Positions 38,970 to 56,870 of a DNA stretch of 64,000 nt are shown here, piece by piece. Under the pieces are notes generated by a model, which was not told the origin of the DNA, ran no database searches, and was given only the letters and a program-made list of their open reading frames with translations. The stretch lies in NCBI RefSeq assembly GCF_030013595.1, contig NZ_CP122768.1; one strand, written 5' to 3'. Made by a program: the position numbers and the translations under genes. Every line of letters begins with the position of its first letter. Position 1 is the first letter of the stretch. This DNA is from Escherichia coli (GTDB lineage: Bacteria; Pseudomonadota; Gammaproteobacteria; Enterobacterales; Enterobacteriaceae).

Positions 38970-39043
38970 GCGGGCGTAGTTCAATGGTAGAACGAGAGCT
39001 TCCCAAGCTCTATACGAGGGTTCGATTCCCTTCGCCCGCTCCA
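38970..39043 (+). tRNA. glyU: tRNA-Gly, anticodon CCC
   Basis: 74 nt GCGGGCGTAGTTCAATGGTAGAACGAGAGCTTCCCAAGCTCTATACGAGGGTTCGATTCCCTTCGCCCGCTCCA; cloverleaf, T-loop GGTTCGATTCC, encoded CCA. Confidence 0.95.
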
Positions 39044-39044
39044 A
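39026..39044. repeat. attL: 19-bp direct repeat (tRNA-Gly 3' end) at the left island junction
   Basis: TTCCCTTCGCCCGCTCCAA is identical to 53083-53101. Confidence 0.85.
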
Positions 39045-39207
39045 ACAAACATTTCTCAACGTCTACTAAAGTCCATCAAACCCACGAATATCAAGCCTTC
39101 CAGCCATTTTCATAGTTTATTAACGTCTACTCACAACCACCAGAATCTACACACAGAAGTGTATAGTAATGCGTATAGGACAAAATTTATTTTTTGGAGC
39201 TATACAC

Positions 39208-40422: not shown

Positions 40423-40550
40423 CTGGTTGCGTATACAGTAGTAGACTTTGAGCGACGAAAGAAAAGGCTGTGTCTAGGGTCGCTCCCGAAAATCCGTACA
40501 CCTCGACGGACTGGTACAGCCACTACAGTAGAGGACGCTGAGGTGTGCGT

Positions 40551-41348
40551 ATGATTGATATTCATGCCGAATTAAACGAATACAAAAAAGATTTTATTTC
40601 TTTACGTGAATTTCTTGAGGTCGTGCTTAAGGTCGCTGGTGATGATTATGATGTTTCAGATGTCATAACTTGGATACTCAGGAGAATAAGCGGAGAACAT
40701 ATCCGCCTGTACACAGTAAATGAATTTAAGCTGTTGGAATCTTTTTGTAACCCGTATCGGGATGAATTTGATTATGATGTTCTTTATAGAAATCTGAATG
40801 CGGTTCGGAAACGTGGTTGTTTACCTGGTGAGAGGGATGAAAATGGTTTTCTGGTGTCCGGTTATTGGGAAGATCCCGAATTTGAGAACATTGGATTTAT
40901 AAGGGGTGAAATTTTCGCAATTTTTCCCGATGTCCTTGACGCGTTAACGAAGCTGGAAGGCGCTAACTCTTCTGAAAATGACGAGGCACAAGGACGCGAT
41001 ATTGAAAAGAAAGAGTTGCGTACAGAGGATGATTTATTATCCCAAATCGCAATGCTGGAAAAAGAAAACGCAGAGTTAAGGGCAAGGATAGAGCAGTTAG
41101 AGCAAGAGCGCCCGATACACTTATATAAATACTGGGATAAAGACCCATTAGCTAAGGCTATTGAGATTAGAAACAGAGAGTGGGCCAATTACGATCCAGA
41201 AAATGATTTTGCCACCAGGGGAAATCAAGAAGCGATAACCAGGGAGCTTAAGCAGTGGGGGGCAAGTAATGCACTTGCAACGCTCATAGAGAGGACTGCC
41301 TGCCCTATTAACCGAGACAACAGCCAAAAGAACGCAAAGCCGGATTAA
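40551..41348 (+). CDS. Hypothetical protein, AT-rich orphan cargo gene next to the integrase
   Basis: 265-aa ORF behind a GAGG Shine-Dalgarno; central coiled-coil stretch (LSQIAMLEKENAELRARIEQLEQER); visibly lower GC than int; no motif I recognise. Confidence 0.6.
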   Translation: MIDIHAELNEYKKDFISLREFLEVVLKVAGDDYDVSDVITWILRRISGEHIRLYTVNEFKLLESFCNPYRDEFDYDVLYRNLNAVRKRGCLPGERDENGFLVSGYWEDPEFENIGFIRGEIFAIFPDVLDALTKLEGANSSENDEAQGRDIEKKELRTEDDLLSQIAMLEKENAELRARIEQLEQERPIHLYKYWDKDPLAKAIEIRNREWANYDPENDFATRGNQEAITRELKQWGASNALATLIERTACPINRDNSQKNAKPD

Positions 41349-41363
41349 CGCACCATACCGCAT

Positions 41364-41507
41364 ACCCTGAGGGTGATTTACTGTTACCCTGAGGGTATTT
41401 TTTTATCTTCCCCGTCAATTTTACCATCACCCTTAGGGTAGATTTCCTCCCGATTACCATCACCCTTAGGGTTAATTTCCTTCCGGTAACCATTAGGCCT
41501 GAGGGTA
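41364..41507. repeat. Five copies of the palindromic motif CCCT(G/T)AGGGT, including a ~33-bp tandem direct repeat; putative operator upstream of alpA
   Basis: Copies at about 41364, 41386, 41428, 41461 and 41494; unit TTACCATCACCCTTAGGGT(A/T)(G/A)ATTTCCT occurs twice. Confidence 0.6.
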
Positions 41508-41575
41508 TGAAAATATTCGTTATTTCTGTGCCAGGATTACCTCGTCAAATTGAGTAGACGTTATGAGGTAAATAT

Positions 41576-41773
41576 ATGTCAAATACGCTTATTCGTTTAA
41601 CAGAAGTTCAGCGTAGAACTGGATATAGCAAGGCATGGATTTATCGCCTTATGGGGCAAGGTAAATTTCCTGCATCAGTTAAAATTGGCTCGCGAGCTAT
41701 TGCTTTCGTTGAGAGTGAAATTGACGAGTGGATTAATCAGCGTATTGCGGAATCACGCGGAACAGCTACCTGA
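41576..41773 (+). CDS. alpA: AlpA-family phage transcriptional regulator / excisionase-like
   Basis: 65 aa, MSNTLIRLTEVQRRTGYSKAWIYRLMGQGKFPASVKIGSRAIAFVESEIDEWI, the canonical AlpA HTH. Confidence 0.8.
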   Translation: MSNTLIRLTEVQRRTGYSKAWIYRLMGQGKFPASVKIGSRAIAFVESEIDEWINQRIAESRGTAT

Positions 41774-41850
41774 TTAAATGGCTACGGGGCTATTGCCCCC
41801 AGCTATCCACCAGCAAATAAAAGTAACTTAATTCGATAGCAGGAGTTTTT

Positions 41851-42651
41851 ATGAAATTTCCAAAAACGCCCGTACAGGGGCGGGGCTTCGTTCGGCCTGA
41901 AAACCAGAATCTGCAAAATTTCGGCGAAATTATCCCGGTTATTTCCGGCGTTATTGGCGGGAGTGAAACCACTATTGTTAGCGCCAGAGCGTTACATAAG
42001 GCGTTAGGTGTAGGGCGCGTTTTCCGTTCGTGGATCAAGGGGCGCATTGAAGAATACGGGTTCACGGAAGGCGTGGATTATGAGGTTGTTGAATATTTGA
42101 GCCGACCCGATCCGGTGAGCGCAAAATCTCGCCAGCAAACCGCTCTTGAGTACATCATCACAGTGAACATGGCGAAAGAACTGGCGATGGTCGAGCGCAC
42201 CGAACAGGGCCGCGCCGTTCGTCAGTACTTCATCAAATGCGAGGAGGAGCTACACAAGGTTGCGCCTGTTCGTTCCGCAGCGTTACGCCGGGAACTGAAA
42301 GCCCGTATCACCGTTGCCAGTTACTTTAAGCCGATGTGCGCCGCGCTGGAGGCGTACCGGGCTGAACTGGGTAAAAACACGTTCCAGCACCACTACACCA
42401 CGGAAGCCAATATGCTGGCGCGTATCGTGCTGGGTGGCATGACTGCAAAACAGTGGGCGCAGGCGAACGGCATCACAGGCGAACCACGCGACCACATGAG
42501 CACGTTGCAGCTTGAGCACCTTTCTTACCTTGAGCAGAGCAATATCACGCTGATTGAGTTAGGCCAGGACTACCACCAGCGGAAAGCTGAATTAATTCGT
42601 CTTTCGCAGCGTTGGTTAGCCCGTCGCATGGAGGAAAACAGCCATGTGTAA
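41851..42651 (+). CDS. Phage antirepressor-like protein (AntA N-terminal / KilAC-like C-terminal)
   Basis: ARALHKALGVGRVFRSWIKGRIEEYGFTEGVDY and MAKELAMVERTEQGRAVRQYFIKCEE resemble Ant-type antirepressor domains; AGGAG Shine-Dalgarno. Confidence 0.65.
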   Translation: MKFPKTPVQGRGFVRPENQNLQNFGEIIPVISGVIGGSETTIVSARALHKALGVGRVFRSWIKGRIEEYGFTEGVDYEVVEYLSRPDPVSAKSRQQTALEYIITVNMAKELAMVERTEQGRAVRQYFIKCEEELHKVAPVRSAALRRELKARITVASYFKPMCAALEAYRAELGKNTFQHHYTTEANMLARIVLGGMTAKQWAQANGITGEPRDHMSTLQLEHLSYLEQSNITLIELGQDYHQRKAELIRLSQRWLARRMEENSHV

Positions 42652-43278
42652 CGCTCTGACCGTTACAAAAAGAGAAAGCGCCCCGTTGCCGGAGCGCCTT
42701 TGTGAACGAATAGCCTACTGCGCCATATTGCTTACTGTCTACGAGGCAGATTATAGCGTTGTGGTCGCACAGAGTGAAGGCGCTGATCACCGTTACTACA
42801 GCACGCCAGAAATGCAGAATATTTTGCTGCAAAATGCCGTTGGTCACGCCGTCCGGAAAGCAAAAAATTTTGCTGGTGGCGCGACTGATGCGATTTTGTC
42901 AGGTCGCCAGGTGCTGATCAATCTGATGTCTGATTTCGTTCTGGATAAAACAAAGGCGACCGCAGAGAGCCGCCAGTGGAAAAGCTACATACTTGAACGC
43001 ATCACCAACAATGCCACATTTGCGGCTGGTGGGCAATGTGATCAGTCAGATTTGGTTCGTTCCAAGGTTTGCAACGAGAGCTTTTTCCTGTGCTCTTTAA
43101 GGAATTTCTCAAGAGCAAACGAACAAGGTGCGAATCTTTCTGATTCATGTTCATGCGCTATATTTTTGCGTCGTTTCTTACGAGTTGGTGATGGTGTTTT
43201 GGTTGATTCTGTGTCGCTCATGGTGCTGTCCTGTAAAGCAATGCGCCTGCGTTCCTCAAACTATGGCGCTGATAGTGG

Positions 43279-43584
43279 CTATTCCTGCTCTTTGACCTTG
43301 CGTCGCTGGAGTTCTTCACGCGCGACGGTGACGAGTTGCCCGATCTCCTCGGCTGCTTTGACTCCGATTTTTTCCACCTGCGCCAGTGCATCGAGCGAAG
43401 AAACCAGGGGATTTTCTCCTCTTCCTTCTGCCTGGCGCCGGGCGATCTCCCCGCGCATGGCGGTTACTATGAATCCGGCGTTGCTTTCGCCGTCCAGTTT
43501 TACGGATTCCATGCCTTCAATAACATCATGCGGGATCCGAGCTGTCAGTGATTGTGATTTTGCGTTTTTTGAACCTGTAGCCAT
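43279..43584 (-). CDS. Putative small DNA-binding repressor (ribbon-helix-helix-like), divergent from the replication operon
   Basis: 101 aa from the ATG at 43584 behind GAGAGGA (track ORF extends to a TTG at 43599); faces a palindrome-containing intergenic region. Confidence 0.5.
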   Translation of the reverse strand: MATGSKNAKSQSLTARIPHDVIEGMESVKLDGESNAGFIVTAMRGEIARRQAEGRGENPLVSSLDALAQVEKIGVKAAEEIGQLVTVAREELQRRKVKEQE

Positions 43585-43780
43585 CTGTAATCCTCTCAAT
43601 GAAAGTGTAAGACAATATACACATAAAAAGTCTTACATAAAAGCATTGACATGTAAGCCACCCACAAATAAAGTTACTTACACCTTGTTAATGCAAGGTG
43701 CAGAAACGACGAAACCCGGCAGTGCGCGAACACTAACCGGGCTTCTAACCACCAACGATAGAGAGCTTATCGAGGTAGCT

Positions 43781-43984
43781 ATGTTAAATCATACCACACA
43801 CCCGCAAGGGCGGGACTCGCACAACCTGAATAAATACATCTGGCGTTTTATCGCCCTGAGTACGGCACAACCGCGCGTAATTCACATCGAGGCCACCAGC
43901 GAACAGGAAGCGCGTCAGCAATCTCCTGATGGCTGCGTGATGGTATTCGCTGCCCGTATTCGCCAGGAGGTGCACCATGCATAA
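43781..43984 (+). CDS. Hypothetical small protein (67 aa), first gene of the rightward operon
   Basis: ATG behind GAGGTAG; stop overlaps the start of the next gene; it is the C-terminal segment of track ORF 42644..43984. Confidence 0.4.
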   Translation: MLNHTTHPQGRDSHNLNKYIWRFIALSTAQPRVIHIEATSEQEARQQSPDGCVMVFAARIRQEVHHA

Positions 43985-44342
43985 CCTGTCAATTTCTGAC
44001 CTTAACAGCATTCAGTTTGACGAGAAATTTACCGGGCAGCTACTGGTCCATGTGGAGAACGGGCGCATAGTGCGTAATTACAACCTGCCGGATGGTGCAA
44101 TTGCCGGAAGCGTTGAAGCATTGCTGGAACTGGCAGAACGTGCGCGACTGATTAAGCCGTTAACGAGCCATCACGATGATGATCTGCATTTTACCGGACG
44201 CATGGTGAGTCACTACGAAAACGGTGTCGAGGTATCCCGCGAACGTCTGCGTGATGATTGCTGTTTCGGCACACTGCCGGAATTTATCGAATTGCTGACC
44301 GATTGCGGTTATCAGGTAATTCAGAGCAAGACGCAGGAGTAA
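43977..44342 (+). CDS. Hypothetical protein (121 aa)
   Basis: ORF coupled to the upstream and downstream genes; no recognisable motif. Confidence 0.5.
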   Translation: MHNLSISDLNSIQFDEKFTGQLLVHVENGRIVRNYNLPDGAIAGSVEALLELAERARLIKPLTSHHDDDLHFTGRMVSHYENGVEVSRERLRDDCCFGTLPEFIELLTDCGYQVIQSKTQE

Positions 44343-44348
44343 AAAACC

Positions 44349-44639
44349 ATGAAAAAGAAAAATTCTGGCTTTACTGCCAGCGGCCCCGCTCGGCCTGAAA
44401 TCAGACACGGCGATATTTACCGCGACACCAGACGCGGGGGACGAGTGGTTATTCGTCACGTTACGCCAGGCAATATCACCTACCGCCGCGAGGCTTACGA
44501 ATATGACTGCGTAATGCCGCGCCGTCAGTTTGAGCGTGATTTTATTCTGGTGGAAAACAAACAACAGGCGGTGGCGAGACGTGCAGCCACGAATATTAAA
44601 AAAATCCGGGCAATGTTGGTTGCGGGAGGTAAGAAGTGA
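44349..44639 (+). CDS. Hypothetical protein (96 aa)
   Basis: AGGAG Shine-Dalgarno; stop overlaps the GTG start of the primase gene. Confidence 0.5.
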   Translation: MKKKNSGFTASGPARPEIRHGDIYRDTRRGGRVVIRHVTPGNITYRREAYEYDCVMPRRQFERDFILVENKQQAVARRAATNIKKIRAMLVAGGKK

Positions 44640-46384
44640 AAAACGCACCGAATTTGAAATATCAGCCGAAGGATAAATTCACTGAGGTTATCATTTTTGC
44701 CGGGACGGATGCTTACGCCCATGCCCAACACTGGATTGAAAGCGAAGGACGAAAACATGGCGATAACGTGCCACCCGTTTATCTGGGGCCAAAGCAACTG
44801 GCAGACCTGGCGAATATCCGCATTGTCGACGATGAACGCCGCTTTGCGCGTGTTTATATCGCGGGGGAGATAGAGCCAATCCAGATCAACGCTATCGCTG
44901 AAAAACTGGCGCTGGCTGGCGTACAGGAGGCGAAATTATACAAAGGCATCACCGACCGGGAGCCGGAGAACTGGCGCGATTACCTGCAACGGTTACGCGA
45001 ACAGGCTGAGCGCGGAGAAATTCTGTCAGGAAGGACCGAGAAAAAACACAAAATATCTCTTTCCAGAATGGCGGACAGCCAAAGGGCAAAACTTTTAGCT
45101 GAACGATTTCAGGATGTAGCAATGAATCAGGAGAGTGAGGTTGTCCACGTCTGGCGCGATGATTTTTGGGTTCCGGTAAGCACACTGGATCTTAGTCGTG
45201 AAATGGTGGCTATTTACGAAGAAAACGGAACAGCGTTTAGCCGGAGAGCAATAAGCAATGCAGTGGATGCTTTAAAAGTTATGGCCAGGCCAATGGGGGA
45301 GCCGTCAGGTGATTTATTGCCGTTCGCTAATGGCGTGTTTGACCTGAAAACTGGCGAATTTTCCCCGCACTCGCTGGATAACTGGATCACCACGCATAAC
45401 GGCATTGAGTACACGCCACCAGCACCAGGGGAGAACATCCGCGACAACGCGCCAAACTTTCATAAATGGCTTGATCACGCTGCAGGAAAAGACCCGCGAA
45501 AGATGATGCGTATATGCGCTGCGCTGTACATGATTATGGCTAACCGGTACGACTGGCAAATGTTTATTGAGGCCACAGGAGACGGCGGGAGCGGCAAGAG
45601 CACATTTACGCACATAGCCACCCTTCTGGCAGGGAAACAGAACACGGTAAGCGCCGAAATGACATCGCTTGATGATGCTGGCGGGCGTGCACAGGTTGTC
45701 GGAAGTCGTCTTATTGTCCTGACAGACCAGCCGAAATATACAGGCGAAGGATCGGGAATCAAGAAAATAACTGGCGGCGACCCCGTGGAAATTAACCCGA
45801 AATATGAGAAGCGTTTCACAGCAATTATCAGGGCTGTCGTGCTGGCAACAAACAACGTGCCGATGATATTCACCGAACGGGCCGGAGGCGTTGCACGTCG
45901 ACGTGTAATTTTTCAGTTCGATAATATTGTAAGGGAGGCCGAAAAGGATAAAGAATTACCGCAAAAGATAGCGGCAGAAATACCTGTCATTATTCGTCGA
46001 CTGCTTACTAACTTTTCAGATCCAGAAAAAGCACGAGAATTATTGCTTGATCAGCGTGACGGTGCCGAAGCTCTGAAAATAAAACAGGAAACTGATCCTG
46101 TCATTGGGTTATGTGCGGCGCTTGCATTTCTTGACGAACCGCATGGAATGATGATGGGAGGCGGTAAGAGAACAGTTGACCTTAACCCACGTACAAGTCT
46201 GTACAGGCTTTATCTTGCCTTTATGGAGTACATAGGCAAAGAAGAAAAATTAAGTGTTAATGATTTTGGTAAGGCCATGAAGGCGGCTGCAAGAGAATAT
46301 GGAGCTGAATATCTGACCAGAGGTTTTAAAGGACGAACACAAACTAACGTTATAAGAACGGAGAGAACCGAGGAATTTTTATAA
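44636..46384 (+). CDS. Phage/plasmid primase-helicase (P4-alpha / PICI Pri-Rep type, SF3 P-loop)
   Basis: Walker A GDGGSGKST and Walker B-like LIVLTDQP; GTG start behind GGAGG; iterons immediately downstream. Confidence 0.85.
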   Translation: MKNAPNLKYQPKDKFTEVIIFAGTDAYAHAQHWIESEGRKHGDNVPPVYLGPKQLADLANIRIVDDERRFARVYIAGEIEPIQINAIAEKLALAGVQEAKLYKGITDREPENWRDYLQRLREQAERGEILSGRTEKKHKISLSRMADSQRAKLLAERFQDVAMNQESEVVHVWRDDFWVPVSTLDLSREMVAIYEENGTAFSRRAISNAVDALKVMARPMGEPSGDLLPFANGVFDLKTGEFSPHSLDNWITTHNGIEYTPPAPGENIRDNAPNFHKWLDHAAGKDPRKMMRICAALYMIMANRYDWQMFIEATGDGGSGKSTFTHIATLLAGKQNTVSAEMTSLDDAGGRAQVVGSRLIVLTDQPKYTGEGSGIKKITGGDPVEINPKYEKRFTAIIRAVVLATNNVPMIFTERAGGVARRRVIFQFDNIVREAEKDKELPQKIAAEIPVIIRRLLTNFSDPEKARELLLDQRDGAEALKIKQETDPVIGLCAALAFLDEPHGMMMGGGKRTVDLNPRTSLYRLYLAFMEYIGKEEKLSVNDFGKAMKAAAREYGAEYLTRGFKGRTQTNVIRTERTEEFL

Positions 46385-46401
46385 GAGTAATGCCTGCAAC
46401 A

Positions 46402-46691
46402 GGTAGACGGGTAGATATTGGGTAGATGCTAGTTTTATGGATGCCTACCCGCTGAATCCCTTGCGCCACAAGGGATTCAGCGAAATAGGTAGATAGGGTA
46501 GACAATATCTCGCTTAAAAACTTTTTTACGCAGCGAAAGGAAAATACAGGTTAGAGAATGGAGAGTTAAAAGAAAGTCACTTTTACTATCTACCCTATCT
46601 ACCTAATAGATAAAAGTTGTTTTTTATCATTGTGTTAAGTGGGTAGATAACCGTTTCTTTGTTGTCTACCTGTTATCTACCTTGTCTACCC
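46402..46691. repeat. Putative replication origin: at least 11 copies of the iteron GGGTAGA(T/C) in both orientations, an 11-bp-arm hairpin and an AT-rich stretch
   Basis: Iterons at 46402, 46409, 46420, 46488, 46496, 46588, 46597, 46641, 46664, 46675 and 46684; inverted repeat CTGAATCCCTT/AAGGGATTCAG at 46452-46480. Confidence 0.7.
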
Positions 46692-46760
46692 ATAAGATGA
46701 AAGTACCGGATACGCCGTGAAGGTGCAGGCAGTGAAGCCCTGGTTATCGCATGTACCAAG

Positions 46761-47108
46761 ATGAAGGATGCGGAGGAACTGAAAGAAATGGCTTGCGATT
46801 TGCGCGAGGTTGAGCTTTTCAAGGATGAAGGCGGGGAGTTAATCACGTCGTTGGTGCTGGAGGATAAGCCCCGCCCACCCGTTGAACTGGAGCGCATCGA
46901 GTACGCTGCTAACAAGACAGAGAATCACGACGCGCTATGGGGCTGTATCCGTTCACGCACACAGCGCGGCGATAAATGCACTATCCCGTTGTTGCGCGAT
47001 GACATGAAAAAGCTGGGGTATGAGATGAAACACTTCCGGCGCTGGCTGTACAAGCTGGAAAGCGACGGCGTAATCGCTATTGACGGTGATTATGTGCGCC
47101 CACTGTAA
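46761..47108 (+). CDS. Hypothetical protein (115 aa)
   Basis: ORF only; sits between the origin and the GTGAGGA array. Confidence 0.4.
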   Translation: MKDAEELKEMACDLREVELFKDEGGELITSLVLEDKPRPPVELERIEYAANKTENHDALWGCIRSRTQRGDKCTIPLLRDDMKKLGYEMKHFRRWLYKLESDGVIAIDGDYVRPL

Positions 47109-47495
47109 AAAGTGAGGAGCAAAAGTGAGGATGGCGGGTAATTTAACAAAAAATCAACGCCACTCCTCACTTTCTCACCTGTATATAGGTCAAAAAGTGA
47201 GGAGTTAAAAACACATTGCAAAACAACAGATTACAACAATAAAGAAAACGACTGAGGAGCAGAACAAGAATAATAAAAAGTGAGGAACAAAAGTGAGGAA
47301 TGGTGAGTTAATAGAAATGAGGTAATAAAAATAACAGGTAGGTTAAAAAACACACCATGCAAGATATTAACTAAAACTTAACTATTTACCTCACTTTTGC
47401 GTATATATAAGGATTAAAAAGTGAGTACTTAAAAATACATTTAAAATCATATTGTTATTAACTTCATAAATTTTCACTGTGCAGCAGGTGAGGAA
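47107..47495. repeat. AT-rich non-coding array of at least 8 copies of AAAGTGAGGA (both orientations)
   Basis: Copies at about 47107, 47121, 47161 (inverted), 47193, 47276, 47289, 47388 (inverted), 47417 and 47487; no ORF of 60 aa or more. Confidence 0.6.
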
Positions 47496-47574
47496 TTAAA
47501 AAATCAGGAATGTTAAAAATGAAAACAGAATGTTGTGTCAGTGCCGTTGGGCAACGTAGCAACCAGTAAAAACG

Positions 47575-48117
47575 ATGGGGCAAAGCATGACTAAGCTGAC
47601 CATTAACAGAAAACCGAAAGGCATTTACGGCACGCCGCAGAAAACGACGCAGGCGGCGCAGGAGCAGGATAAAACCACATCGGCGCATAAAGTGATGCCC
47701 GGTAACCAGAAAGCGCAGCAGAAGCCCACAGGGGCGACACCGTGGCGGCATATGACCAAACGCCAGCGCAAAAACCGCAGGCGCGTTAACCGCCTCACTG
47801 AGTTGTGGCCTGAATTATTCAGCCGGGAAGCACCGAAGCCGCTTAAGGTGGGGATATTCGACGACCTGATGCAGGATCTCGCCGTCAGGGGGCTGGCATT
47901 CGGTCCAGGGGCATTGCGTGCGACGCTGGCATCTTATGCGCAGTGTCCGCGCTATTACCGCGCCTTAATGGCTGGTGGGGTACGCTACGACCTGAAAGGC
48001 CAGCCGTGCGGCGAGGTGACACCACAGGAACAACAGGACGCCGAAACGCGGCTGGTGGCGCTGAATGAGAAGCGCAAACGTCAGCGCCGGGCAGCAAAGG
48101 AGAAAACAGGCGCATGA
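47575..48117 (+). CDS. ProQ/FinO-domain RNA-binding protein
   Basis: LTELWPELFSREAPKPLKVGIFDDLMQDL...RATLASYAQCPRYYRALMAGGVRYDLKGQPCGEV parallels the recalled ProQ N-terminal domain (RFPHCF...RPLKIGIFQDL...RVDLDGNPCGE). Confidence 0.7.
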   Translation: MGQSMTKLTINRKPKGIYGTPQKTTQAAQEQDKTTSAHKVMPGNQKAQQKPTGATPWRHMTKRQRKNRRRVNRLTELWPELFSREAPKPLKVGIFDDLMQDLAVRGLAFGPGALRATLASYAQCPRYYRALMAGGVRYDLKGQPCGEVTPQEQQDAETRLVALNEKRKRQRRAAKEKTGA

Positions 48118-48401
48118 TTCACGACAGCAAAGCGGAAGCACTGGAAGCGCGTGGTCTGTACCGGAGAGCGGCGGCGCGGTGGGCTGAGGTCATCATGCTG
48201 GCGAATGATGACAAGGCACGGGAACAGGCGGCAAAACGTCGCGCGGAATGTATCCGCAAGGCAGCACGCCCACCAGCAAGGCAGGATAATTTCGGGGAAA
48301 TGCGCGAAACCATCAGCCGGGCACATGCCGGGATGGGATTACATCAGCCCAATGGTAAGGCATTCAGGAAATACCCTGGATCGAAAAATTGCAGTCAGTG
48401 A
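48114..48401 (+). CDS. PerC-family transcriptional regulator (copy 1)
   Basis: MIHDSKAEALEARGLYRRAAARWAEVIM...RRAECIRKA matches the PerC/Pch family signature as I recall it; ATGA overlap with the ProQ/FinO gene. Confidence 0.7.
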   Translation: MIHDSKAEALEARGLYRRAAARWAEVIMLANDDKAREQAAKRRAECIRKAARPPARQDNFGEMRETISRAHAGMGLHQPNGKAFRKYPGSKNCSQ

Positions 48402-48405
48402 CAGA

Positions 48406-48430
48406 AGCCGGGATTTTTCCCGGCTTTTTT
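48406..48430 (+). terminator. Rho-independent terminator after the PerC-like gene
   Basis: AGCCGGG-attttt-CCCGGCT followed by a T6 run. Confidence 0.75.
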
Positions 48431-48442
48431 GTGCCAGTAAAA

Positions 48443-48477
48443 AGCCCGCAGCCAGAAGTGTTGCGGGCTTTGTTTTT
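48443..48477 (+). terminator. Second tandem rho-independent terminator
   Basis: AGCCCGCA...TGCGGGCT followed by TTGTTTTT. Confidence 0.65.
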
Positions 48478-48596
48478 CAGGTGATTGAAGTCAATGGGAA
48501 GAACGCGATCATCATGCGTTATCGCTTCATAAATTGCAACGATGTAGATCGTTATTTCAGTTTGTGCAATCATAATCATTGTTTTGTTCAGGAGAT

Positions 48597-48776
48597 ATGA
48601 CTATGAGAAAAGCCAGCGTGAAACCCGTTTTACTCGCTCGTGATCAGATTGAAGCATTACAGCGCATCCAGGACGAGGAACGCCGCAATTCTCCGCTGGG
48701 GATTGCTCCGAGCATTCATGAGGTCGCCCGGCGTTTAATGCAGCGGGCGCTTTATCCCGTAGAACGTCCGGCCTGA
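48597..48776 (+). CDS. Hypothetical small protein (59 aa)
   Basis: ATG behind CAGGAG; MTMRKASVKPVLLARDQIEALQRIQDEE... Confidence 0.4.
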   Translation: MTMRKASVKPVLLARDQIEALQRIQDEERRNSPLGIAPSIHEVARRLMQRALYPVERPA

Positions 48777-48815
48777 TGGTCGTGATTTTTTGGTGAAAAA
48801 AGAGAGGTGGTAAAA

Positions 48816-49400
48816 ATGCCAGCAAGCAAAGAAGATTTGCGATTAAAACTGATGGAGGTGGTTAACGCTCTGTCAGAGTCGCAGGGCAGCACTCCGCAGG
48901 AGATTATCGAAATTCTGAATGCGATCCCCGCACAGGATTTCACAAAAGCGGACGAGGATGACGCGAATAAAAACATCGTCGCGTCAGTCGAAGATGAATC
49001 CTCACTGGCAGAAGCCCAGGCTAAAGCGGATTCCGCATACAGCAATATGGGCCGTCGCGCTCCAGCCCCGTTTGCTGGTGAAAAGTCGATGGATTACCGC
49101 AAGCGTGCATTAATTGGTGCACAGAAGCTGGCTAAAAAATTCAGTGATGTGGATATTCGTTCCGTTTCAGATTCTGCAACGCTGGCGGTGCTGGAAGATC
49201 AGATTTACCAGGCTGCAAAAGACAGTGTTCAGTGGGCTGTGGAAAATACGCCGGGCTATTTGCGTAAAACCGTAAGAATGGATGAAGCCGGACGGCGGAT
49301 TACTGAATATCAGGGGGATCCGAATAACTGGCTTAGTGCTTTCAAAATCCCTCCCCGTCGCCTGGTTAAAATTAACGTTGCAAGCCTCGCGGGGGCATGA
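48816..49400 (+). CDS. Hypothetical protein (194 aa)
   Basis: ATG behind GAGGTGG; acidic, with predicted helical regions; no recognisable motif. Confidence 0.5.
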   Translation: MPASKEDLRLKLMEVVNALSESQGSTPQEIIEILNAIPAQDFTKADEDDANKNIVASVEDESSLAEAQAKADSAYSNMGRRAPAPFAGEKSMDYRKRALIGAQKLAKKFSDVDIRSVSDSATLAVLEDQIYQAAKDSVQWAVENTPGYLRKTVRMDEAGRRITEYQGDPNNWLSAFKIPPRRLVKINVASLAGA

Positions 49401-49464
49401 AAAACGTGCTGATTTCAGCCCTGCCGGATTTGGTGGGGCTTATTGCTTATAACCGGGGGACATT

Positions 49465-50118
49465 ATGCTTTTAACAGAAATTGAGGCGGCAAAGCAGATT
49501 CGGGACGGTCAGCTACCGTCGCCTTATCAGTTTTCCAACATGTGGCTGATTAACCTGCGTATCACAGGAACCGGAATGGCCTATCGCGCCGAAGAAAAAG
49601 AATTTGTCTGGCGTTCACCGCAAACTTATCTCAATCCGCAGTTCCTGGAACGTTGCGCCGGAGTACCCGTCATTATCGACCATCCCGAAAGCAAAACCCT
49701 TGAAGACGTGGGCGAACGGTCGCGCATTATTGGCACCGTTATGTTGCCGTATATTCGCGGTGACGAGGTGTGGGGCGTATGCCGGATTTACGGGCAGGAA
49801 ATCATCGATTACATCCAGAAAGCACGGGGGGAGGTATCCACCAGCCCGTCGGTTGTGTTTTGTGGTGCGTCCGGTGGGGCAGAAGTTCCTGATGTAATGG
49901 GCGAGGACAATTTTTTCATTGAGGGTACGCCATTTCTTATCGATCACGTTGCGCTCGTACCGTTGGGCGTATGGGATAAGGGCGGGAAACCATCAGGTGT
50001 GGAAGTAACAACGCCGACAGAAGAAGAACAGCTCGCCGGAATGGTCCGTGAAGTTATTGATGCGGCCTGCAAGCCAGCCCTGGAAAAACTGGAAGAAATA
50101 TCCGGGCGCTGGCTATGA
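49465..50118 (+). CDS. Hypothetical protein (217 aa)
   Basis: ORF behind a GGGGGA Shine-Dalgarno; no recognisable motif. Confidence 0.5.
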   Translation: MLLTEIEAAKQIRDGQLPSPYQFSNMWLINLRITGTGMAYRAEEKEFVWRSPQTYLNPQFLERCAGVPVIIDHPESKTLEDVGERSRIIGTVMLPYIRGDEVWGVCRIYGQEIIDYIQKARGEVSTSPSVVFCGASGGAEVPDVMGEDNFFIEGTPFLIDHVALVPLGVWDKGGKPSGVEVTTPTEEEQLAGMVREVIDAACKPALEKLEEISGRWL

Positions 50119-50288
50119 ATCGTGGGATTGTCCCTGCAGCAGGAAACAATGATCAGAACGTTAAGTTGGAAATTGTTCGGAACGCTGGTGCCGATTACTT
50201 CGCGCAACTAATTGGTGCTCAACGGTTCCTGGGATGATTTAAATACACGCGCTTTCCGGCGCATTAATACAGTCTGAGGGGAAGTGTC

Positions 50289-50813
50289 ATGTTTATGAGC
50301 AAGGCAGAATATGCCAAACACAAAGGCGTAAGCCGCCAGACAGTTTACGACTGGATCGAGAAAGGCGAAGTGGTCATGTCCGGTAAAAAAATCGATGTGG
50401 AAGCGACAGAGCAGCGGAACAGCCCACCAGCACAGGGAAAAGATACCGTTTCTGAAATGTGGCCAGAGAGAACGCTGGAAATGACGTGGGGCGAGTTCTG
50501 GAAAGCAGTTAAGGCCAGAGACGGTAAAATCCCTGCACCAGTAACGGACGATGACATACAGCAGCGTGTGCAGGATGCAGCCGGGGAACTATGCTGTGAA
50601 GTGCAATTTCTTGATGATGGTGCTATCTGCCTTGAGGATTATGCTGGGCAATATTACTTTGAGCAGTATGATTTTCGGGAAAATGCCAGGCTGGCAATTC
50701 GTATGCTGCGTTGTGAGCTCTGCTATGTTGCAGGTGATTGTCCCGATGAGCTGGATAACTGGAGTGAAGCCGGACTAAACGCCCTGGCTGAGTGGGAAAA
50801 ATCATCCCATTAA
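50289..50813 (+). CDS. HTH-domain protein (small-terminase / Rpp-like N-terminus)
   Basis: N-terminus SKAEYAKHKGVSRQTVYDWIEKGEV is a typical HTH as seen in phage small terminase subunits; followed by a repeat array. Confidence 0.5.
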   Translation: MFMSKAEYAKHKGVSRQTVYDWIEKGEVVMSGKKIDVEATEQRNSPPAQGKDTVSEMWPERTLEMTWGEFWKAVKARDGKIPAPVTDDDIQQRVQDAAGELCCEVQFLDDGAICLEDYAGQYYFEQYDFRENARLAIRMLRCELCYVAGDCPDELDNWSEAGLNALAEWEKSSH

Positions 50814-50826
50814 TGACCGTAAAATT

Positions 50827-51110
50827 CGCGAAAAGTGTCAAGTCAGGCCGTCTGCCGGGTTGACACTTTACACTCTGAACGCGAAAAAGTGTCAACCTCG
50901 CTGTAAGCCCCGCCATTACTGGCCTTTCGCCAGATTTACCACGTCAAAAAGCCGAAAAAATCGCGAAAAGTGTCAAGTTGCCATGCTTAGAAATGCTAAG
51001 GTTTGATAAGGTTTTTCGCGAAAAAGTGTCAAGTGTGTCAACCTGCGATGTTAAGATTTGTTAAGGTCTTAAGCCGGAAAGTGTCAACCAGCCCCTAAGA
51101 TTTCCTAAGG
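50827..51110. repeat. Array of at least 6 copies of CGCGAAAAGTGTCAA plus three TAAG(A/G)TTT doublets
   Basis: Copies at about 50827, 50861 (inverted), 50880, 50960, 51016 and 51078; non-coding. Confidence 0.6.
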
Positions 51111-51118
51111 TGTAAATC

Positions 51119-51409
51119 ATGACCATCACCGAAGCCGATATGCTGGAGATGATCCGCAGCATTGCCGGAATCAGACCACCAGCAGGCAAACAGGAGGCCA
51201 CGCAGCCGGACAGCGTTATCGCTGAGAACTATGCGCGTGTGGTGGCTGAGGTGATGCGCCGTGACGGTATTGAGCTTAACGGAGTGGATATGCGCGACAT
51301 ACGCACCAGGGTACTCGAGTTATTGGCCTACCGTCGCCGCGTGCAGATGTACCGGGAGAGCGAGAAAAAGACTTACCAGTGGAAGAAGCCGGAGCGGTTA
51401 CGGCGGTAA
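51119..51409 (+). CDS. Hypothetical protein (96 aa)
   Basis: ORF behind an AAGGTG Shine-Dalgarno. Confidence 0.45.
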   Translation: MTITEADMLEMIRSIAGIRPPAGKQEATQPDSVIAENYARVVAEVMRRDGIELNGVDMRDIRTRVLELLAYRRRVQMYRESEKKTYQWKKPERLRR

Positions 51410-51459
51410 CCAGTTGATAAAAAGGCTCCTCAATTTTGAGGAGGGTAGCTGGTGGCTGG

Positions 51460-51481
51460 CAGAATGTAAATTTACATTCTG
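51460..51481. terminator. Perfect 22-bp palindrome between convergent genes (bidirectional terminator or protein site)
   Basis: CAGAATGTAAATTTACATTCTG, preceded by a second hairpin CTCCTCA-attt-TGAGGAG at 51426-51443. Confidence 0.5.
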
Positions 51482-51511
51482 GTGATTTAATCATCTGATT
51501 TACCCGATGGC

Positions 51512-51802
51512 TTACCTTACCAGGCCATAGCGGATTACCGTGCAATGCGCACCATCGCCACCAATACGCACATCAAAACGTGGCTCACGGACTTTCACAC
51601 GCTCCAGCAACTTATCACGAACCATAGCGTTTAGCGTCCTTCGTGTTGCCTCTATGTGATATCGCTGATATTCGGAACCATAGAGCAGCACTGTAACACC
51701 ACGAACATCAAAAGGTGGATCTCCAGCCTCCACCCGCACCCAATCGCGATACTCAGGTTTGTAGAGTTCAAGGATCTGTTTTTTGTGCCTGGTCATTCTC
51801 AT
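51512..51802 (-). CDS. Hypothetical protein (96 aa)
   Basis: Minus-strand ORF with a protein-like composition; palindromic operator upstream. Confidence 0.45.
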   Translation of the reverse strand: MRMTRHKKQILELYKPEYRDWVRVEAGDPPFDVRGVTVLLYGSEYQRYHIEATRRTLNAMVRDKLLERVKVREPRFDVRIGGDGAHCTVIRYGLVR

Positions 51803-51916
51803 GCGTGCAACTCCTTATTGTGGGACAGTACTGTCATACAATAAGCTATACGGAAAATTATCAAAAGAACAGAAACCAACCATTCAGATTTAACAGGTAT
51901 CAATGGGATTATGCTT

Positions 51917-52219
51917 ATGGTGCATGATGACAAAGCGGAAGAACTGGAAGCGAAAGGCTTATGGCGACGGGCGGCTAATCGCTGGGGTGAGTTACTGAAA
52001 CAGGCGGCAAGTGATGAAGCGCGTCAGTATGTAACGGAACGACGAACGGCATGCATCCGGAAGGCAACCATAACCCGGGAACCGGAAAGAGACCTGATTT
52101 GTGCCATAAGAACCGCCGCCACAAAAACACTAACGGATATGGGGATCGACCTGAAAAAAGAAGATCCACTGCGGGGCATTCAGCACGGACATACAAAGCA
52201 GGATAAACGCAGGAAGTAA
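51917..52219 (+). CDS. PerC-family transcriptional regulator (copy 2)
   Basis: MVHDDKAEELEAKGLWRRAANRWGELL...RRTACIRKA parallels copy 1 at 48114 (clear paralogue); alternative ATG at 51911. Confidence 0.7.
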   Translation: MVHDDKAEELEAKGLWRRAANRWGELLKQAASDEARQYVTERRTACIRKATITREPERDLICAIRTAATKTLTDMGIDLKKEDPLRGIQHGHTKQDKRRK

Positions 52220-53082
52220 ATTTTTTCGTGTAACCAGGCAACCGACTATCTGAAAGATAGTCACACCCTACCGGGATCACGCTAGTAACGCACAACAGAG
52301 TGACCCATAGCCACCCTGTTTAACCGTTCCGGCTGGCTGGGCAGATTTTGCGCGGGTCTTATAGTCCCTCACAACAGAGTAAATAAAATTGACTTGGTTA
52401 CAGAGTAACCAAACCGGAGATTCCCGGTTTGCTCAAAAAATGACAATGAGTTACGCCCCTAACCTAAGTAATCCTTACATTCACTGCATCATCACCATGA
52501 TGGTGACGCAGCCCACCAGCAACCATAACGATTTCCGTTACAGTTGATGTGCTTTTTTGCTGGTAAGGCGTAACCCGTTGATTGTTCCAGAATCCACCAT
52601 CGGTGGAAGTTGAAAAACTCACCCGCCAGATTCTGAATGGTGAAAATCACCGGGGATCTGAATAGGCATTTCCTCTATGGAGGTCGCACCGTTTTCGGGA
52701 GAAGGTGCGATCATGTTCGTCATACCTGTTCCGTTGAAACGGAATACCCCATTCCGGCGTAGCTGGTGGACGCACAGCCACATACGAAAAATTGCATTCA
52801 GGAGGGGGGATCGAAATCCCTACCCCCCATTGCTTATGGGACCGCCCGCCCCGTCAAATTTTTACACCCGCGAAATTAAAAAAATGCGTCGCGCTGGTGG
52901 GCCTGATGCCGATATGGGGATTCCCATAACGGGTTATCCATGATCATCCACCAGCTTGATAACGGATAACAGGGGATGCGAAATCCTCAAGCGAGTGATA
53001 AACGTGTATAGAAATGTGTATAGAATCTATTTTAGAACTCGAGAATGTGCCTTTATTACTGGTCTTGTTGCTTGTTGTATTG

Positions 53083-53101
53083 TTCCCTTCGCCCGCTCCA
53101 A
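53083..53101. repeat. attR: 19-bp direct repeat of the tRNA-Gly 3' end at the right island junction
   Basis: TTCCCTTCGCCCGCTCCAA is identical to 39026-39044. Confidence 0.85.
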
Positions 53102-53333
53102 TTTATCTTCACCTCATCAACCTGTCATTTTTGTTGTATCTGATTTTCTATATTATCTTAATTCAATCGCTTCAGACTTTTCGCAATCGCCGAAATACTT
53201 CCCCATTTTGTTGTAAATAAAAAGCGTTTACGCAATGCAATCCTTTTGTAACAACCCAGGTAAAATACCTTATTTTCAAGTTGTTAAATAAGTGGTTATC
53301 TACGCTTTTAACAAACGATTGATGGAATATTTT

Positions 53334-54944
53334 ATGAAAGGGAAATCTGCATTAACGCTTCTGCTTGCTGGTATATTTTCGTGCTGCACATGCCAGGCGA
53401 CATGGGCAGAAGTGACGAGTGACTCCGTATTTAACATTCTTAATTCCAGGGGGGAAGCAATAGATAAAAGTTATTTATCGTTAAATCCAGATAAGTATCC
53501 TAATTATCGTCTTCTGATTCACTCAGCCAAATTACAAAATGAAATAAAGAGCCACTATACCAAAGACGAAATTCAAGGATTGTTTACATTAACAGAAAAC
53601 ACACGAAAGTTAGCGTTGACGGAGAAACCCTGGGGAACGTTTATTCTTGCTTCTACTTTCGAAGATGACAAAACAGCGACAGAAACCCACTATGATGCTG
53701 TCTGGCTGAGGGATAGTTTATGGGGCTATATGGCATTAGTATCAGATCAGGAAAATAGGGTAGCTGCAAAAAAGATTCTGCTCACCCTGTGGGATTATAT
53801 GTCTACGCCCGACCAGATTAAGCGGATGCAGGATGTCATTAGCAACCCAAAACGACTGGATGGAATTCCCGGGCAAATGAATGCTGTGCATATCCGATTT
53901 GACAGCAACTCCCCCGTGATGGCAGATGTGCAGGAAGAAGGCAAGCCGCAGCTGTGGAACCATAAACAAAATGATGCTTTAGGTCTTTATCTTGATCTCC
54001 TTATACAAGCCATCGACACTGGTACTATTAACGCTGAAGACTGGGAAAAAGGTGACCGATTAAAATCGATTGCGCTGTTGGTTGCTTATCTGGATAAATC
54101 CAATTTCTATATTATGGAAGATTCTGGAGCGTGGGAAGAAGATGCCCGATTAAACACATCTTCCGTTGCACTGGTGACCTCGGGACTGGAACGTTTGTCG
54201 AACTTACTCTCGAAGAAAGACTCTGTTTTTATTTCTGATTTACTACGCGAAGCTAAAGCCAATGAACTGGATGAAACTTTTTCAACAACGAGGTTGAACC
54301 ATCTCATAGATAAAGGGTATGAAAGAATAACGCTACAGCTTGATTTAGGGGGAGAATCCCCTGGTTATCTGGAAAAAGATAAACATTACAGAGAAGCTGA
54401 TGCGGCCTTACTTAATGTTATTTATCCTGCAAATCTTTCAAAGATAAACACCAGAAGAAAAGAGCAAGTTCTAAAAATAGTTAAAAAACTAGCAGGTCCG
54501 TATGGTATAAAAAGATACGAGAAGGATAATTATCAGTCGGCAAATTTTTGGTTCAATGATATTAAAACTGATACTGATGAAAATTCACATGCGAAAAGAG
54601 AAATGAGCTTCATTCCATCAACAGAAGCAGAATGGTTTTTTGACTCATGGTATGCAAAATCAGCAGCAATTGTTTATAAAGAATCAAGAAAAGAAGAGTA
54701 TTTGAATGACTCAGTGCAATTTATGAATAGATCATTGGCCCAAATAACAGGCGAGAATATGATTGGTGCAAATGGCAGGAGCGTACCAGAAATGGCACTT
54801 CCCGAAAGCTATAACTATATCCACAAGTCGGGAACTTTGCATGAAGCGCCAAGCCCTATCATTCCGCTAAATTGGTCGAAAGCTTCAATGACTCTCATGT
54901 TGAAAGAGATGTCCAACCTTATCAATGATGAGGGAATTAAATAG
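53334..54944 (+). CDS. Secreted hypothetical protein flanking ETT2 (possibly glycoside-hydrolase-like)
   Basis: Signal peptide MKGKSALTLLLAGIFSCCTCQATWA; AT-rich; DAVWLRDSLWG motif is weakly reminiscent of (alpha/alpha)6 glycosidases; sits where ygeP/ygeQ lie in K-12 as I recall. Confidence 0.55.
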   Translation: MKGKSALTLLLAGIFSCCTCQATWAEVTSDSVFNILNSRGEAIDKSYLSLNPDKYPNYRLLIHSAKLQNEIKSHYTKDEIQGLFTLTENTRKLALTEKPWGTFILASTFEDDKTATETHYDAVWLRDSLWGYMALVSDQENRVAAKKILLTLWDYMSTPDQIKRMQDVISNPKRLDGIPGQMNAVHIRFDSNSPVMADVQEEGKPQLWNHKQNDALGLYLDLLIQAIDTGTINAEDWEKGDRLKSIALLVAYLDKSNFYIMEDSGAWEEDARLNTSSVALVTSGLERLSNLLSKKDSVFISDLLREAKANELDETFSTTRLNHLIDKGYERITLQLDLGGESPGYLEKDKHYREADAALLNVIYPANLSKINTRRKEQVLKIVKKLAGPYGIKRYEKDNYQSANFWFNDIKTDTDENSHAKREMSFIPSTEAEWFFDSWYAKSAAIVYKESRKEEYLNDSVQFMNRSLAQITGENMIGANGRSVPEMALPESYNYIHKSGTLHEAPSPIIPLNWSKASMTLMLKEMSNLINDEGIK

Positions 54945-55233
54945 TTTTCATAATGAGGCGGTCCTGGATTAAAAGGACCGCTCAAAGAGAAATCGTAAGG
55001 GAGGTAAAAGTGATCAATAAATTACTGTTAGCTTACCTGATAGGTCTGGTTGTAACATCGACCTTAATATTTATCTTCTCGGAAGAAAAAGTAACATATC
55101 GGTTGTTTGCTGCAGTAATTACAGGGTTGACCTGGCCGCTTAGCCTCATTCCATCCATCATAAGTCTCATAATTCGTAAATCCGACTAACAAGAAATTTA
55201 TATGAACGATTAAGAAAAATAGTGGATTTGCCC

Positions 55234-56139
55234 CTATATTTCCAGACATCTGTTATCACTTAACCCATTACAGGCCCGCTGCCGCAGATATTCCCGTGGC
55301 GAGCGATAACCCAGCGCACTATGCGGATGCCATTCGTTATAATGCTCGAACGCCTCTGCAAGGTTCTTTGCTGCCGTTAACCCGTCTGGTTTGGGCATGA
55401 TACTGATGTAGTCACGCTTTATCGTTTTCACGAAGCTCTCTGCTATTCCGTTACTCTCCGGACTCCGCACCGCCGTGTTCTTCGGTTCAAGTCCCAACAT
55501 CCGGGCGAACTGGCGTGTTTCATTAGCCCGGTAGCATGAACCATTATCCGTCAGCCACTCCACTGGAGACGACGGAAGATCGTTGCCGAAGCGGCGTTCC
55601 ACCGCTCCCAGCATGACGTCCTGTACTGTTTCACTGTTGAAGCCGCCGGTAGTCACCGCCCAGTGCAGTGCCTCACGATCACAGCAGTCCAGCGCGAACG
55701 TGACACGCAGTCTCTCTCCGTTATCACAGCAGAACTCGAACCCGTCAGAGCACCATCGCTGATTGCTTTCTTTCACGGCCACTCTGCCTGTATGTGCCCG
55801 TTTCGATGGCGGTACAGCAGGTTTTCGCTCAAGCAACAGCGCATTCTGGCGCATGATCCGGTAAACACGTTTGGCATTGATCGCAGGCATACCATCAAGT
55901 TCTGCCTGTCTGCGAAGCAGCGCCCATACCCGACGATAACCATACGTGGGCAGCTCTCCGATAACATGGTGTATACGGAGAAGCACATCCGTATCATCAG
56001 TGTGACGACTGCGGCGGCCATCCATCCAGTCATCGGTTCGTCTGAGAATGACGTGCAACTGCGCACGCGACACCCGGAGACAACGGCTGACTAAGCTTAC
56101 TCCCCATCCCCGGGCAATAAGGGCGCGTGCGCTATCCAC
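55234..56139 (-). CDS. insD: IS2 transposase OrfB (DDE integrase core)
   Basis: 301-aa ORF matching IS2 InsD as recalled. Confidence 0.9.
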
Positions 56140-56462
56140 TTTTTTGCCCGTCCATATTCAACGGCTTCTTTGAGGAGTTCATTTTCCATCGTTTTCTTGC
56201 CGAGCAGGCGCTGGAGTTCTTTAATCTGCTTCATGGCGGCAGCAAGTTCAGAGGCAGGAACAACCTGTTCTCCGGCGGCGACAGCAGTAAGACTTCCTTC
56301 CTGGTATTGCTTACGCCAGAGAAATAACTGGCTGGCTGCTACACCATGTTGCCGGGCAACGAGGGAGACCGTCATCCCCGGTTCAAAGCTCTGCTGAACA
56401 ATTGCGATCTTTTCCTGTGTGGTACGCCGTCTGCGTTTCTCCGGCCCTAAGACATCAATCAT
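56097..56462 (-). CDS. insC: IS2 transposase OrfA
   Basis: [52 protein letters not shown]...; HTH; overlaps insD for -1 frameshift fusion. Confidence 0.9.
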
Positions 56463-56870
56463 CTGTTCTCCAATGACTAGTCTAAAAACTAGTATTAAGA
56501 CTATCACTTATTTAAGTGATACTGGTTGTCTGGAGATTCAGGGGGCCAGTCTAAATAGAATCGAAAAAGAGAATAAAATATATGCAGGGAGTAACAAAAC
56601 ACTCGCAGTGCGTTAATGTGTAACTAACAAATATGATTTTTATTGAAAATAGTCACCAAATAAGTGTTATAAGAAATACGGGGTATGTTTAAGTAAAACA
56701 TATCAACAGTTGCAATTCTGTATATGGACAGGATGACTTACTACTGTAAGTGGCTGATAGCTATTCGCTCATAACAAAATCATTATTTTATAAATAGGAA
56801 TCATCACTTTTTAATCATGTTTTTATTGCAAGTTTATGGAGAATGAGAATATGGAATAAGGAGATGAAAC

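Follow-up and report, generated by a model that had tools for sequence, protein, structure and literature searches.

The open reading frame (ORF) at positions 53334..54944, on the plus strand of a 64,000-nucleotide stretch of the Escherichia coli contig NZ_CP122768.1 (assembly GCF_030013595.1; this whole stretch is referred to as the window), is an intact allele of pkgA, which lies at that edge of the ETT2 type III secretion island that faces glyU. Taken as a whole, the evidence is best explained if PkgA is an intact, Sec-exported alpha-glucoside hydrolase of the glycoside hydrolase family 15 (GH15) type, derived from this island, a reading to which a probability of roughly 0.7 is assigned. 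The analysis casts doubt on a twenty-year-old hypothesis, in which PkgA is a type III effector, and shows that the family keeps every residue predicted to be catalytic. The finding of the gene is itself no novelty, as it has already been named, annotated and discussed in the literature. It was named EC042_3075 in the 042 genome paper, while in the ETT2 review it appears as ECs3736/pkgA, with the description "phosphorylase kinase and glucoamylase", and as a homologue of K-12 b2863/b2862. RefSeq matches are annotated as "glycoside hydrolase family 15 protein", and genome annotation is unaffected, since RefSeq already calls pkgA.

The ORF starts with ATG, ends with TAG and encodes 536 amino acids. 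An AT-rich frame of this size was part of the original prediction, and the GC content of 40.1% (0.401), with 37.4% (0.374) at third codon positions, confirms this description. The upstream island and the core DNA have a GC content of about 0.50, and the ETT2 genes on the 3' side of pkgA range from 36 to 41%. An alternative GTG start at 53292 would extend the frame by 14 codons; the ATG, not this upstream GTG, is used as the start in RefSeq orthologues. The ORF is a genuine gene and not a chance reading frame, because it is kept in thousands of E. coli genomes and shows ratios of nonsynonymous to synonymous substitution rates (dN/dS) of 0.08-0.26. The ratio is 0.21-0.26 relative to other E. coli alleles and 0.08 relative to E. 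albertii, and intact pkgA alleles are under purifying selection. A pseudogene in the window strain was also considered, and this option is ruled out by the lack of internal stops and by dN/dS below 0.3. A promoter and terminator scan of 53000..55400 returned sites no more frequently than in shuffled sequence.

Matches to pkgA are present in 3978 of 5426 complete E. coli genomes, all of them chromosomal, and they span at least 80% of the gene length in 2968. The closest alleles belong to two pig isolates (99.9%), followed by enteroaggregative E. coli 042 (99.6% nucleotide identity), and most alleles are 96-97% identical. The core genes adjoining pkgA give the same best-match pattern as pkgA itself, which indicates that the window lineage is close to 042. 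The 042 copy (EC042_3075) and the O157 alleles, 99.6% and about 96% identical to the window gene, respectively, share its length and start, and they occupy the same place, between glyU on one side and a GhoT-like gene, eivF and eivG on the other. Two features distinguish the window from 042 and O157, namely an island of about 14 kb that parts pkgA from glyU and a copy of IS2 on the 3' side of pkgA. No experimental work on ygeQ, ygeP, pkgA or ECs3736 was found in the searchable literature.

The ORF had been proposed to occupy the position of the K-12 fragments ygeP and ygeQ and to be perhaps the intact ancestral gene, and alignment to the K-12 translations bears out both proposals. YgeQ (264 amino acids) matches residues 1-264 of PkgA with 93% identity and begins at the same ATG, and the next K-12 ORF, ygeP (92 amino acids), matches residues 288-379 with 95% identity. 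In effect, both fragments align collinearly to one frame beside glyU, and the K-12 locus has the same flanks as the window, with actS, tRNA-Gly and ETT2 remnants. The lesions responsible can be located precisely. Codon 265, a GGA (Gly) at 54126..54128 on the plus strand, is TGA in the K-12 allele, as seen in a codon-by-codon comparison and in the protein alignment, and this stop truncates YgeQ two codons ahead of the predicted catalytic W-E-E. The last base with a K-12 counterpart is 54470, according to BLASTN against the K-12 locus (L001) and the K-12 annotation. IS2 starts in K-12 where homology stops, and codons 380-536, including the predicted base E491, are lost through IS2 and a deletion. 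This K-12 IS2 inside pkgA is associated with a deletion reaching orgA, and its orientation is opposite to that of the window IS2. The K-12 genes ygeQ and ygeP (b2863/b2862 region) are remnants of pkgA; the K-12 copy is dead, whereas the window copy is unbroken.

A different lesion is found in O157:H7 Sakai, where pkgA (L009 3603..5208) carries a 5-bp deletion at codons 187-188 and is consequently split into the ORFs ECs_3737 and ECs_3736 ('ygeP'). The gene was inactivated independently in K-12 and in Sakai, as were many other ETT2 genes, which makes pkgA a clean example of ETT2 decay, intact in the window and in 042 and separately killed in two other lineages. The copy in the sorbitol-fermenting O157 strain 493/89 is intact.

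The resemblance of the protein to glycosidases had been described as weak. This is correct for the sequence, but the resemblance is strong by fold and active-site residues. With the GH15 profile PF00723, PkgA scores 26.5 bits (cut-off 22; E = 3.9e-6), the match spanning profile positions 14-309 of 427, and no NCBIfam equivalog matches the protein, the best score there being 15.3 bits where 820 are required. The AlphaFold model, built on the family alignment, has a mean predicted local distance difference test score (pLDDT) of 91.3 and a predicted template modelling score of 0.91. In this model, PkgA is a single-domain (alpha/alpha)6-barrel of the GH15 fold, with the signal peptide and an extension of roughly 85 residues on its N-terminal side. 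The barrel fold, the W-E-E acid motif and the -1 subsite residues that characterize GH15 are all found in PkgA.

The active-site assignment is based on conservation among 45 homologues, down to 25% identity, whose alignment contains 27 invariant columns. In the N-terminal part of PkgA, these are A106, W124, R126, D127, W208, H210, Q212 and D214; in the middle, G265, W267, E268, E269, S276, S277, R353, D356 and A358; and in the C-terminal part, G391, R394, Y395, D398, Y400, W434, P490, E491, L512 and W514. They include the motifs WxRD, WxHxQxD, GxWEE, RxxD, PE and LxW. In the same sequences, variation is absent or almost absent at Y120 as well as at W124, R126, D127, W208, W267, E268, E269, R353 and D356. 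Alignment by hhalign equates Y120/W124/R126/D127 with Y48/W52/R54/D55 of Aspergillus niger glucoamylase, W208/Q212/D214 with W120/Q124/D126, and W267/E268/E269 with W178/E179/E180. This comparison used one A. niger sequence, numbered as in the literature, and covered the first three motif regions with low probability. Additionally, the PkgA WEE aligns with WEE 429-431 of glucodextranase and with Glu185 of phosphorylase kinase alpha, a residue named catalytic in a cryo-electron microscopy study (PMC10978961). The predicted general acid and its neighbour, E268 and E269 of G-A-W-E-E, are encoded at 54135..54140, and the predicted general base, E491 in L-P-E-S-Y-N, at 54804..54806, both on the plus strand. 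All three residues are invariant in the 45 members; E268 and E269 are also assigned through the alignments, and the role of E491 is a putative one. It is concluded from these sequence comparisons that PkgA would have a complete GH15-type active site, and an inverting exo-alpha-glucosidase is the most likely activity.

Export is indicated by the N-terminus. The first 25 residues of PkgA, MKGKSALTLLLAGIFSCCTCQATWA, contain two lysines, a 10-residue hydrophobic core (Kyte-Doolittle 2.5) and a T-W-A site, and correspond to a predicted Sec signal peptide at 53334..53408 on the plus strand. The prediction draws on the hydrophobicity profile, a PROSITE-style lipobox pattern and low pLDDT over residues 1-30; in the AlphaFold model, the N-terminal residues form a low-confidence helix apart from the fold. 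As originally predicted, then, the sequence profile identifies this segment as a Sec-type signal peptide, with a basic n-region, a hydrophobic core and an AXA-like site. The original prediction also spoke of a secreted protein. Export across the inner membrane is supported by the sequence, whereas release from the cell goes beyond that support. Cleavage by signal peptidase I after T-W-A25, giving a soluble periplasmic protein, is most likely. An outer-membrane lipoprotein anchored through Cys17 was considered as well, since the lipobox-like IFS-C17 (within …LAGIFS-C17) of E. coli PkgA fits the PROSITE-style pattern, and this form was judged less likely. The soluble periplasmic form is favoured because the context of Cys17 is not kept in E. 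albertii, Yersinia and L011. In the E. albertii homologue, the Cys follows an Asp and is buried in the hydrophobic core, outside any lipobox, and the Yersinia and L011 homologues do not have this Cys, their signal peptides ending in AQA|S and AFA|T. Among 153 full-length family members, 84 have an N-terminal hydrophobic segment; those without it are mostly Firmicutes-like, Elusimicrobiota and Bifidobacterium members, which appear cytoplasmic.

These features can be combined into a proposed course of action. PkgA would be exported to the periplasm by the Sec pathway and cut by signal peptidase I near Ala25. The mature protein would then bind a non-reducing-end alpha-linked glucose in the conserved -1 pocket, predicted to consist of Y120, W124, R126, D127, W208, E269, R353, D356 and W514. 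Hydrolysis of the glycosidic bond would proceed with inversion, E268 acting as the general acid and E491 as the general base, and would free glucose from an alpha-glucoside or alpha-glucan. As substrates, the ends of maltodextrin or glycogen, isomalto-oligosaccharides and a trehalose-like disaccharide are candidates. In evolutionary terms, pkgA probably arrived with the AT-rich ETT2 island and has been held by purifying selection where it is intact.

The nearest solved relatives of PkgA are not typical glucoamylases. When solved structures were searched with the PkgA sequence, phosphorylase kinase beta and alpha were the only matches. A profile of the 45 homologues matched phosphorylase kinase alpha (4e-12) and beta (5e-5) and reached glucodextranase with 0.084; the other canonical GH15 structures were missed by this profile at the sequence level. 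Classical GH15 enzymes (A. niger 3EQA, Clostridium 1LF6, Arthrobacter 1ULV) show marginal similarity to PkgA, with a best E of 0.084, and differ from it in that PkgA has neither a starch-binding domain nor the bacterial-type N-domain. The GH15 'glycosidase' 5Z3A (371 amino acids), which we take to be the isomaltose glucohydrolase of Kribbella flavida, is 15% identical to PkgA and was likewise missed by the family profile. Compared with it, PkgA has 165 additional amino acids as well as a signal peptide and an N-terminal extension. Both phosphorylase kinase subunits, alpha and beta, are eukaryotic proteins of the cytosol that exceed 1000 amino acids and have four further domains besides D1, and no hydrolase activity has been detected for them (PMC10978961). 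In contrast to phosphorylase kinase D1 (PDB 8JFK), PkgA is a stand-alone exported domain of 536 amino acids, and it keeps WEE and all pocket residues, whereas both phosphorylase kinase alpha and beta have WER.

Several observations weigh against the assignment of PkgA as an exported hydrolase. The match to Pfam is a marginal one that leaves out the C-terminal third, and the pairing of E491 with A. niger Glu400 (M-S-E-Q-Y) has a non-significant score of 41.5, shuffled sequences giving 31 +/- 5.5 with a maximum of 48.5. About 45% of family members have no detectable signal peptide, so the compartment varies among relatives. No measured enzyme activity for any member of the PkgA subfamily was found in the searchable literature. 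Furthermore, no activity of phosphorylase kinase alpha and beta was seen on maltose, isomaltose or glycogen, in the case of alpha despite the presence of both catalytic glutamates (PMC10978961), which means that intact residues are no guarantee of a glucoamylase-type activity. Finally, a recurrent linkage of pkgA homologues to ETT2-like modules hints at a system-tied role that a hydrolase does not explain.

The example of phosphorylase kinase also raises the idea that PkgA is a non-catalytic protein, binding carbohydrate or serving a regulatory function in the manner of the glucoamylase-like domains of that kinase. Its closeness to alpha and beta among solved structures, together with their undetectable hydrolase activity (PMC10978961), speaks for such a role. 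Nevertheless, across very divergent bacteria there is no variation in the acid, the base or any -1 subsite residue, a strictness difficult to account for if the protein were not catalytic; phosphorylase kinase beta, unlike PkgA, has lost some catalytic residues (PMC10978961), and PkgA, exported as a stand-alone domain, has no partner domains. A non-catalytic PkgA is considered highly improbable on this balance.

The distribution of homologues is relevant to the question of whether PkgA belongs functionally to the secretion system beside it. Identity to PkgA is 77% in E. albertii, 60% in Yersinia enterocolitica and 55% in Commensalibacter, and further homologues occur in metagenome-assembled genomes of several phyla from termite guts, in Bdellovibrionales, Omnitrophota, cyanobacteria, Francisella, Endozoicomonas and Chlamydiae. 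Gram-positive bacteria, cyanobacteria and candidate phyla are represented in the family. The homologue of Commensalibacter oyaizuii (L007 8001..11147) stands tail-to-tail with a GH32 (fructosidase/invertase-type) gene, an arrangement that hints at the use of dietary sugars in insect-gut bacteria. The Y. enterocolitica and Commensalibacter loci have no type III secretion system (T3SS) genes near the pkgA homologue. A tblastn screen with ETT2 apparatus proteins detected T3SS genes within 10 kb in Escherichia DNA and on the contig L011 only. Leaving aside E. albertii and a pair of stray E. coli contigs, SPI-1-type T3SS genes are missing within this distance at all of the roughly 60 loci from other species.

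A linkage that is not trivial is seen on three Enterobacterales contigs, on which pkgA homologues of 50-65% identity are accompanied by an ETT2-like module (L011 1712..10647, L078 3842..13861 and L079 1926..12263). On each of them, the homologue adjoins a hilA-like regulator, an iagB-like transglycosylase, a GerE regulator and orgAB-prgKJIH, a 'half' module of the type found in ETT2 and in pathogenicity island 1 of Salmonella (SPI-1). The sequenced stretches of these contigs carry no inv/spa export-apparatus genes, and their arrangements differ from that of ETT2. On L078, the homologue also adjoins an F-type traI and is followed by a GhoT-like gene; on L011, it adjoins parAB and a gene for a SopD-like pentapeptide protein. 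A PLSDB search revealed no plasmid-borne pkgA homologue or half-module, the matches being chromosomes filed as plasmids, and traI of L078 was the only gene that matched known plasmids there. In a neighbour-joining tree, which has no support values, the T3SS-linked copies fall into two subgroups among unlinked ones. At the ETT2-like linked loci, pkgA is conserved at 50-65%, compared with 36% for PrgH and 27% for OrgA.

These data bear directly on the proposal that PkgA is a type III effector, which was made in the 042 genome paper and in the ETT2 review, the latter crediting Pallen 2003. According to this idea, ETT2 would inject PkgA into host cells, where it would act on glycogen or mimic the regulatory subunits of phosphorylase kinase. 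The hypothesis has some basis beyond its publication: the gene lies at the edge of ETT2 in both E. coli and E. albertii, the 50-65% homologues accompany hilA-like, iagB, orgAB and prgHIJK genes on three contigs, one of them near a SopD-like gene, and among solved structures, the nearest relatives by sequence are eukaryotic (phosphorylase kinase alpha and beta). On the other hand, the N-terminus is predicted to be a classical Sec signal, with a basic region and a hydrophobic core, which is unexpected on type III substrates, and no chaperone gene adjoins pkgA. The Y. enterocolitica and Commensalibacter homologues are free of nearby T3SS genes, as are nearly all of the roughly 60 other-species loci with respect to SPI-1-type genes within 10 kb, and Gram-positive, cyanobacterial and candidate-phylum bacteria also have such proteins. 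It is this combination of a Sec signal with a widespread family that is mostly unlinked to secretion systems that makes the effector hypothesis doubtful, and it is regarded as very unlikely. The linkage to ETT2-type modules may reflect either inheritance together with an old island or an accessory role in the periplasm, and it does not rescue the effector idea.

The accessory role can be formulated more specifically: PkgA would be a Sec-exported envelope protein of ETT2-type islands, neither a nutritional enzyme nor an effector, that remodels or senses an envelope or host-surface glycan. In at least four arrangements (Escherichia, L011, L078 and L079), the pair of pkgA and a GhoT-like gene is conserved next to prg/org and regulator modules of the ETT2-like type, and at linked loci pkgA is better conserved than PrgH or OrgA; both observations speak for this role. 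There is also precedent, as IagB-type lytic transglycosylases and the secretin are Sec-exported proteins of T3SSs. Several points oppose this role. No periplasmic alpha-glucan that would have to be removed for the apparatus is known in E. coli, most family members have no T3SS nearby, and the linkage could be plain inheritance of one ancestral island; moreover, Salmonella SPI-1 is not known to carry a pkgA-like gene. The accessory role is rather unlikely, and an exported alpha-glucoside hydrolase is still preferred.

A more speculative variant, with a small chance of being right, is that PkgA-type proteins form a distinct bacterial GH15-like branch, sister to phosphorylase kinase D1 in alpha and beta, whose active site is complete but whose substrate is not maltose, isomaltose or glycogen, and which was recruited in Enterobacterales, together with a GhoT-like gene, as a Sec-exported accessory of ETT2-type islands. 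If this were true, the substrate of PkgA would suggest the ligand of the intact-looking 'inactive' pocket of phosphorylase kinase alpha. Among bacterial relatives of phosphorylase kinase's enigmatic glucoamylase-like domains, the PkgA family is the nearest, and its simple biochemical characterization appears worthwhile.

The surroundings of pkgA in the window were shaped by two insertions. The gene had been placed between an island and IS2, which is correct as to both neighbours, the right-hand repeat attR (53082..53099) lying on the 5' side and IS2 (55223..56553) on the 3' side; what this description omitted is the GhoT/OrtT-like gene that precedes IS2. On the 5' side, an island of about 14 kb (39044..53099) is inserted at the 3' end of glyU, the tRNA-Gly(CCC) gene at 38970..39043, between 18-bp direct repeats. 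The right-hand repeat of the glyU 3' end, on the plus strand, consists of the 18 bases ttcccttcgcccgctcca, which are also present at 39026..39043 within the tRNA gene. In other genomes, homology resumes at window position 53083, under their tRNA-Gly annotation, and attR shows where the island ends and where glyU and pkgA were originally joined. The island encodes a P4-type integrase, an AntA antirepressor, a D5-like primase-helicase, a ProQ/FinO protein, a DUF2213 protein and a small helix-turn-helix protein, and it looks like a phage satellite or a phage-inducible island. It is absent at glyU in E. coli 042 and O157, where pkgA directly follows glyU.

On the 3' side, pkgA is followed by a gene for a small membrane protein of 59 amino acids that belongs to the GhoT/OrtT family (55010..55189, plus strand; Pfam PF10753, E = 3e-11) and is homologous to ECs3735. 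The gene has a GTG start with a strong ribosome-binding site, GGGAGG, upstream, and it is a constant 3' neighbour of pkgA, being found in O157, 042, E. albertii and L078. Beside this toxin-like gene, no antitoxin gene is apparent. A hairpin with an 8-bp stem (54957..54981) is located between the pkgA stop codon and the GhoT/OrtT-like gene. The window IS2, on the minus strand and flanked by a 5-bp target duplication, AATAG, was delimited by BLASTN against the IS-less O157 and 042 loci and the K-12 IS2. The element entered the space between the GhoT-like gene and eivF as a simple insertion and leaves pkgA untouched. As it lies upstream of eivF, which encodes an AraC-type regulator, this IS2 may disturb the expression of eivF and of the inv operon.

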